This document shows, piece by piece, positions 10,355 through 10,388 of a stretch of 14,819 nt of DNA. Position 1 is the first letter of the stretch. Each line of letters opens with the position of its first letter. The notes beneath the pieces are model-generated. The model made no database searches. It worked only from the letters and a program-made list of their open reading frames with translations, and was not told where the DNA came from. A program made the position numbers and the translations under genes. The stretch comes from Escherichia coli (lineage in GTDB: Bacteria; Pseudomonadota; Gammaproteobacteria; Enterobacterales; Enterobacteriaceae): the NCBI RefSeq assembly GCF_003334355.1, contig NZ_QOWP01000051.1; one strand, given 5' to 3'.

Positions 10355-10388
10355 CCGCTCTCATCCATTCGATGAGAGCGGTTTTTTT
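10355..10388. terminator. Intrinsic terminator between convergent pheP and ybdG, probably bidirectional
   Basis: Perfect hairpin CCGCTCTCATC (10355-10365), loop CATTC, GATGAGAGCGG (10371-10381), followed by T7 (10382-10388) on the plus strand. On the minus strand the same hairpin is followed by a weaker CGTTTTG run. Confidence 0.75.

Follow-up and report, generated by a model that had tools for sequence, protein, structure and literature searches.

A probable Rho-independent terminator of pheP whose hairpin also appears to set the 3' end of convergent ybdG in Escherichia coli

Rho-independent termination in E. coli follows a familiar plan, exemplified by trp t and lambda tR2: a stable G+C-rich stem-loop (a stem of about 5-14 bp and a loop of 3-8 nt) is followed directly on its 3' side by a U-rich tract, and the whole lies downstream of the end of a gene on the same strand. 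Between convergent genes a single hairpin may carry an A-tract on its 5' side as well as a U-tract on its 3' side, giving each orientation a U tail, as in bidirectional intrinsic terminators. REP and BIME elements are another class of element found in 3' UTRs. Two other ways of arriving at a 3' end beside a stem-loop have been described. In the collision model of Ju et al. 2019, as outlined in bioRxiv 10.1101/2022.10.23.513370, the hairpin is a pause site and head-on collisions between polymerases drive release. In the other, which PMC7815308 cites from Dar and Sorek 2018, the trimming of Rho-terminated transcripts stops at a stem-loop that protects them. A literature search turned up no direct work on a pheP/ybdG terminator.

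The hairpin considered here lies between the convergent genes pheP and ybdG in the window, that is, the whole stretch of 14,819 nt of E. coli DNA that was analysed (contig NZ_QOWP01000051.1). In its remainder the cus–pheP–ybdG–nfsB neighbourhood is recognisable. The region is annotated as convergent pheP and ybdG in 5404 of 5426 complete E. coli genomes, which shows that the names given to the two genes in the initial annotation were right. The mechanical ORF of pheP runs from 8911 to 10323; K-12-like and MG1655 records annotate 1377 nt, which puts the start on the GTG codon of GVKNAS, at 8947. The mechanical ORF of ybdG spans 10391-11656 and the annotated length is 1248 nt, with the ATG at residue 7 of the mechanical ORF. 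The two stops are separated by 67 bp (10324-10390), and the only small ORFs found in this gap were mechanical ones running out of the flanking genes. The features of the junction are as follows.

8947..10323, plus strand: pheP coding sequence, phenylalanine:H+ symporter, with its TAA stop at 10321-10323
10313..10344: degenerate REP-like remnant, forming a weak imperfect hairpin (GTCGGA...TCCGAC) and overlapping the stop codon of pheP
10336..10354: weak small hairpin, ACATC-(9 nt)-GATGT, directly 5' of the terminator in the plus sense and present in the minimum-free-energy fold of both strands
10354..10355: junction of a derived 13-bp deletion, where K-12 has CAACCATCCGAAA (MG1655 603367-603379), from the alignment and the MG1655 sequence
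10355..10365: 5' arm of the terminator stem, CCGCTCTCATC, kept in Escherichia and Citrobacter with one compensatory pair
10366..10370: terminator loop, CATTC, 5 nt
10371..10381: 3' arm of the terminator stem, GATGAGAGCGG
10382..10388, plus strand: U7 tract (TTTTTTT) of the pheP intrinsic terminator, the expected release site
10391..11638, minus strand: ybdG coding sequence, miniconductance mechanosensitive channel, with its TAA stop at 10393-10391

The plus-strand stem (10355-10365 with 10371-10381) consists of 11 Watson-Crick pairs without a mismatch, 7 of them G:C, and begins 31 nt past the pheP stop. The initial annotation had described a perfect stem of 11 bp, a 5-nt loop and a T7, set in a 67-bp gap between convergent stops, and the sequence confirms that description in full. 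The 41-nt plus-strand RNA segment folds at -19.8 kcal/mol (z = -6.3), with none of 200 shuffles as good, and the minus-strand RNA version of the hairpin folds equally well. When the whole window was dinucleotide-shuffled 300 times, perfect stems of at least 11 bp closing a loop of 3-8 nt appeared in only 6 of the shuffles, and one of the two plus-strand runs of at least 7 T in the window abuts the stem; given this rarity and this placement, the hairpin is unlikely to be a chance occurrence. Some E. coli (loci L002 and L004) carry the 3' arm GATAAGAGCGG in place of the one listed above, placing a C·A mismatch midway along the stem, and E. albertii and locus L006 have one mismatch each, near the loop. 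The small hairpin at 10336..10354, which on the minus strand lies 3' of the terminator and contains GUUUUG, gave no evidence of function. The only other perfect stem of at least 9 bp in the window is a 9-bp palindrome at 2497-2518, AAATGACAA-TTTT-TTGTCATTT, in the divergent intergenic region between cusR and cusC; it matches what we take to be the CusR box.

On the plus strand the G+C-rich stem-loop has the dimensions given above for the canonical class, the U-rich tract directly follows the stem, and both lie downstream of the end of a gene on the same strand. By the d'Aubenton-Carafa formula, which underlies all T and d scores given here, the plus-strand tail scores T = 5.03, with d about +43. 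K-12 MG1655 has an identical hairpin at 603380-603406, followed by its T7 at 603407-603413, and a plus-strand 3' terminus has been mapped there in the TRS study, which re-analysed RNAtag-seq of MG1655 in LB: the peak covers 603405-603417, with 603410 dominant (PMC10687069 Supplementary Data 2, sheet 'E. coli - Barsheshet'). When coordinates are tied to the MG1655 sequence, 603410 is the fourth U of the tract and corresponds to position 10385 of the window. This end comes from one data set, where it was significant in two of three replicates. It falls inside the range of 10382-10390 in which plus-strand ends had been expected, and together with the hairpin and its U7 it upholds the original description of a textbook intrinsic terminator on this strand. 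The curated Term-seq table of Adams et al. (PMC7815308) lists no 3' end in the pheP/ybdG gap, plausibly reflecting low expression of pheP. The TRS tables also contain a 3' end inside pheP, at 602159 on the plus strand, about 200 nt into the gene (PMC10687069).

A hairpin followed by U7 also resembles, as a matter of general knowledge, the 3' module of Hfq-dependent sRNAs, which raises the idea of a small Hfq-binding RNA released from the pheP 3' UTR, with the terminator as its Hfq module. An Rfam scan of 9900-10900 at a permissive E-value returned only sub-threshold eukaryotic miRNA and snoRNA noise, the best match being a spurious one to mir-3618 (25 bits against a threshold of 99), and literature on pheP, Hfq and sRNA concerns other things, with no link to a pheP 3'UTR sRNA found. 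Moreover, only 31 nt of UTR precede the hairpin, and they are not conserved in Citrobacter. Such an RNA is therefore extremely improbable, and the U7-tailed hairpin is better read as the pheP terminator.

The sequence immediately upstream of this terminator has a history of its own. The remnant at 10313..10344, called REP-like by what we take to be the REP consensus, folds at -10.9 kcal/mol (z = -1.9) and can be aligned with GTAGGTCGGATAAGGCGTTCACGCCGCATCCGACA of strain AREA_502 (L003) and with the E. albertii equivalent (L007, GTAGGCCGGATAAGG...), in both of which a full REP pair is present. In these two genomes the BIME-like pair (at about 481-590 of L003) accompanies a gap of 157-158 bp, and pheP is 2 codons longer. 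The REP content of the pheP 3' UTR thus varies between strains. In E. coli ECA64 an IS200C with an annotated tnpA (L004 786-1510) is inserted just past the T7, between the hairpin and the ybdG stop; with the element in that position the hairpin cannot serve ybdG in that strain. The possibility that the terminator hairpin is itself a REP element or a member of a repeat family was considered and rejected, the hairpin being found at one place per genome (median 1) with REP resemblance confined to the adjoining 10313-10344.

A perfect 11-bp inverted repeat with REP-derived sequence directly upstream and, in one strain, an IS200C alongside might conceivably act as DNA, either by binding a dimeric protein or through being a mobile or repeat element, instead of as an RNA hairpin. 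Against this, there is one copy per genome, and among 84 loci the stem pattern occurs solely at the pheP/ybdG junction, in Escherichia and Citrobacter. The loop varies in sequence and length while pairing is kept by a double change, as described below, and RNA 3' ends flank the hairpin on both strands, with the U7 adjacent. We give a purely DNA-level role next to no credence and take the repeat to act as an RNA hairpin.

How far this hairpin extends beyond E. coli was followed by a scan of species-representative genomes carrying YbdG, with subsequent tblastn and folding, which yielded 80 loci, Salmonella not among them. A direct convergent pheP/ybdG junction was found in Escherichia (gaps of 67-158 bp), in Citrobacter (54 bp) and in one Pluralibacter genome (42 bp). 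Five Citrobacter genomes (L008, L016, L021, L025 and L044; about 3769-3795) keep the stem, as CCGATCTCATC...GATGAGATCGG, with one double compensatory change from C:G to A:U and covarying extra pairs at the foot of the stem; the loop is different in sequence and in one case also in length. The 11 sequences from Escherichia and Citrobacter show pairing in 97.5% of core-helix cells, and the covariation score was reached by none of 500 shuffles, although with two genera only it is statistically weak. The Citrobacter hairpin lies only 6-7 nt past the pheP stop and has no U-tract on either strand, which makes the hairpin the conserved part of the element and the U7 specific to Escherichia. The conserved role of the hairpin may accordingly not be intrinsic termination as such; 3'-end protection or pausing may have been the ancestral selected role, with the U7 a later gain in Escherichia. 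At the same gene junction Pluralibacter has an unrelated and fully symmetric terminator with an A-tract, a hairpin and a U-tract (AAAGAAATCCCGCC...GGCGGGATTTCTTT), and in other genera different hairpins follow ybdG, some of them classic hairpin-plus-U-tract terminators.

The Citrobacter arrangement, a hairpin without U-tracts shared by a convergent pair, is of the kind that bioRxiv 10.1101/2022.10.23.513370 reports for this class of terminator. If the E. coli hairpin worked in this manner, it would be mainly a pause site at which polymerases meeting head-on are released. On the plus side, however, a textbook U7 needs no collision. Read densities for ybdG are low in the TRS 3'UTR-CDS table, where pheP appears only with its internal end (PMC10687069), and with both genes weakly expressed the simultaneous presence of convergent polymerases should be rare. 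Collision-driven release is very unlikely here, and intrinsic termination remains the preferred account of the pheP side.

On the ybdG side the published K-12 data again place 3' ends next to the hairpin. The Barsheshet sheet gives a 'primary' ybdG terminus at 603374, and a second, annotated sheet gives one at 603371; the latter position recurs in the matched RNAtag-seq/Term-seq file, where CAGUAAUUAAAAAAACCGCUCUCAUCGAAUGGAUGAGAGCGGUUUCGGAUGG is entered as the sequence upstream and the hairpin has -24.6 kcal/mol (PMC10687069). The two positions are 6 and 9 nt beyond the stem, which by distance corresponds to 10349-10346 of the window and so to the region (about 10345-10355) where minus-strand ends had been expected. 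With 3' ends of both strands flanking one hairpin in K-12, the hairpin is shared and used from both sides.

What follows the stem on this strand is another matter. A run of U's is provided on one side of the stem only: the flank opposite the T7 reads ACGATGT here and CCGAAA in K-12, so the arrangement in which a 5' A-tract and a 3' U-tract supply both orientations with a U tail is not found. The minus-strand tail in the window, given as ACAUCGUUUU, ACAUCGUUUUG or ACAUCGUUUUGUCGG, scores T = 0.44 with d about -36 and does not qualify as a canonical U-tract; its first U-run begins 7 nt past the stem. The K-12 tail, UUUCGGAUGGUUG, is marginal (T = 2.58, d about +3), with only UUU followed by CGGAUGG. 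The initial annotation had proposed a terminator shared by both genes and likely less efficient on the minus strand. The sharing is supported by the K-12 ybdG ends, but intrinsic termination on the minus strand sits poorly with a tail that in this allele is not U-rich by the stem.

It could still be argued that the element is a symmetric bidirectional intrinsic terminator, on which polymerase alone would stop efficiently in both orientations, in the short allele as well. The hairpin is equally stable on both strands, a simple scan for hairpins lists the terminator on both strands, and the K-12 minus-strand ends lie within 6-9 nt of the stem. The tail scores just given argue the other way, for the window allele (ACAUCGUUUUG) and even for K-12 with its lone UUU, as does a Rho-dependent region downstream, antisense in pheP: in the data of Adams et al. 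2021, Rho termination is assigned to 602863 on the minus strand, with a Rho score of 3.3 and p = 3e-6 (PMC7815308 Supplementary file 2). Coming from ybdG, this position lies about 470 nt past the stop of pheP, or at roughly 9850 of the window by distance; a further Rho termination region is listed at 604637 on the same strand, near the ybdG 5' end. Symmetric termination is accordingly improbable. Taken together, the antisense Rho region in pheP and the poor U-tract suggest that read-through and trimming, not intrinsic termination, account at least in part for the 3' end on the minus strand. The antisense-pheP RNA ended by Rho could itself stem from ybdG read-through or from an internal antisense promoter in pheP.

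The difference between the two minus-strand tails comes from a 13-bp indel. Of the 5426 complete E. coli genomes, 3235 (about 60%), O157:H7 included, carry the short junction of the window and 1388 the K-12-like long allele, with other variants in the remainder. The long form is also the one found in E. albertii and in another Escherichia genome, which identifies the 13-bp deletion as derived. The deleted 13 nt are exactly where the K-12 ybdG 3' ends map, and the deletion replaces the minus-strand tail UUUCGGAUGGUUG with ACAUCGUUUUGUCGG. They include the stem-adjacent UUU and the AAA that in K-12 pairs with the first U's of the tract, extending the stem there to 14-15 bp. All of the 3'-end data come from K-12 and hence from the long allele; how the short allele behaves, and by what mechanism each strand is handled, we infer. 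That the deletion alters ybdG read-through into antisense pheP, and so is a common polymorphism tuning both the formation of ybdG 3' ends and, through antisense transcription, the expression of pheP, is, jointly with the ancestral role suggested above for the hairpin, an unlikely proposition. The pair of long and short alleles could provide a natural test of termination against 3'-end protection by a hairpin without a U-tract. The short allele is also found in a 7.8 kb contig assigned to 'Marinobacter sp. B9-2' (PYVH01000101.1, L005) that is 100% identical to the E. coli region and is probably E. coli contamination of that assembly.

The reading we favour, and hold to be highly probable, is that the element is the Rho-independent terminator of pheP and that the same hairpin sets the ybdG 3' end, mostly as a barrier to exonucleases with weak termination in addition. 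On the plus strand, RNA polymerase would pause on the U-tract, the 11-bp hairpin would fold inside the exit channel, and release of the RNA would follow within 10382-10388. On the minus strand the equally stable hairpin would define the 3' end of the ybdG mRNA, above all by blocking 3' exonucleases; given that the window allele has no U-tract adjacent to the stem, the hairpin of the short allele would most likely be a weak or partial terminator or a pause site, and the mechanism there is probably not classical intrinsic termination. Polymerases that read through would be stopped by Rho in the untranslated antisense pheP RNA, and 3' exonucleases would then trim the Rho-ended ybdG RNA back to a few nt 3' of the stem. 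As an object this is an ordinary terminator hairpin of the textbook kind, already known in that its K-12 RNA ends stand in published tables. Its significance lies in marking where the transcription units of pheP and ybdG end, with one hairpin serving both; it adds little beyond annotation.

Set against the known systems, the plus strand shows no notable difference from canonical Rho-independent terminators: a G+C-rich 11-bp stem with a 5-nt loop and about -19 to -20 kcal/mol, beginning 31 nt past the stop, with U7 right after the stem and the K-12 3' end within the U-tract. With bidirectional intrinsic terminators the element shares a single hairpin in a short convergent gap, an A7 preceding the stem on the minus strand and K-12 3' ends on both strands. 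Unlike them it is asymmetric, with a U-tract on the pheP side only; on the ybdG side K-12 has UUU, and here the 13-bp deletion has left no U-run adjacent to the stem. It differs from collision-driven terminators in that one strand of the E. coli element looks like an intrinsic terminator and expression of both genes is weak. The likeness to REP and BIME elements of 3' UTRs is confined to the REP-derived remnant immediately upstream (10313-10344) and to the full pair of some strains, whereas the terminator hairpin is single-copy and without REP sequence. On the ybdG side the closest parallel is with Rho-terminated transcripts trimmed to a protective stem-loop, in so far as PMC7815308 relates them from Dar and Sorek 2018: the ybdG ends lie 6-9 nt past a hairpin without a proper U-tract, and a Rho region follows about 470 nt further downstream, the link between ybdG and Rho being putative at this locus.
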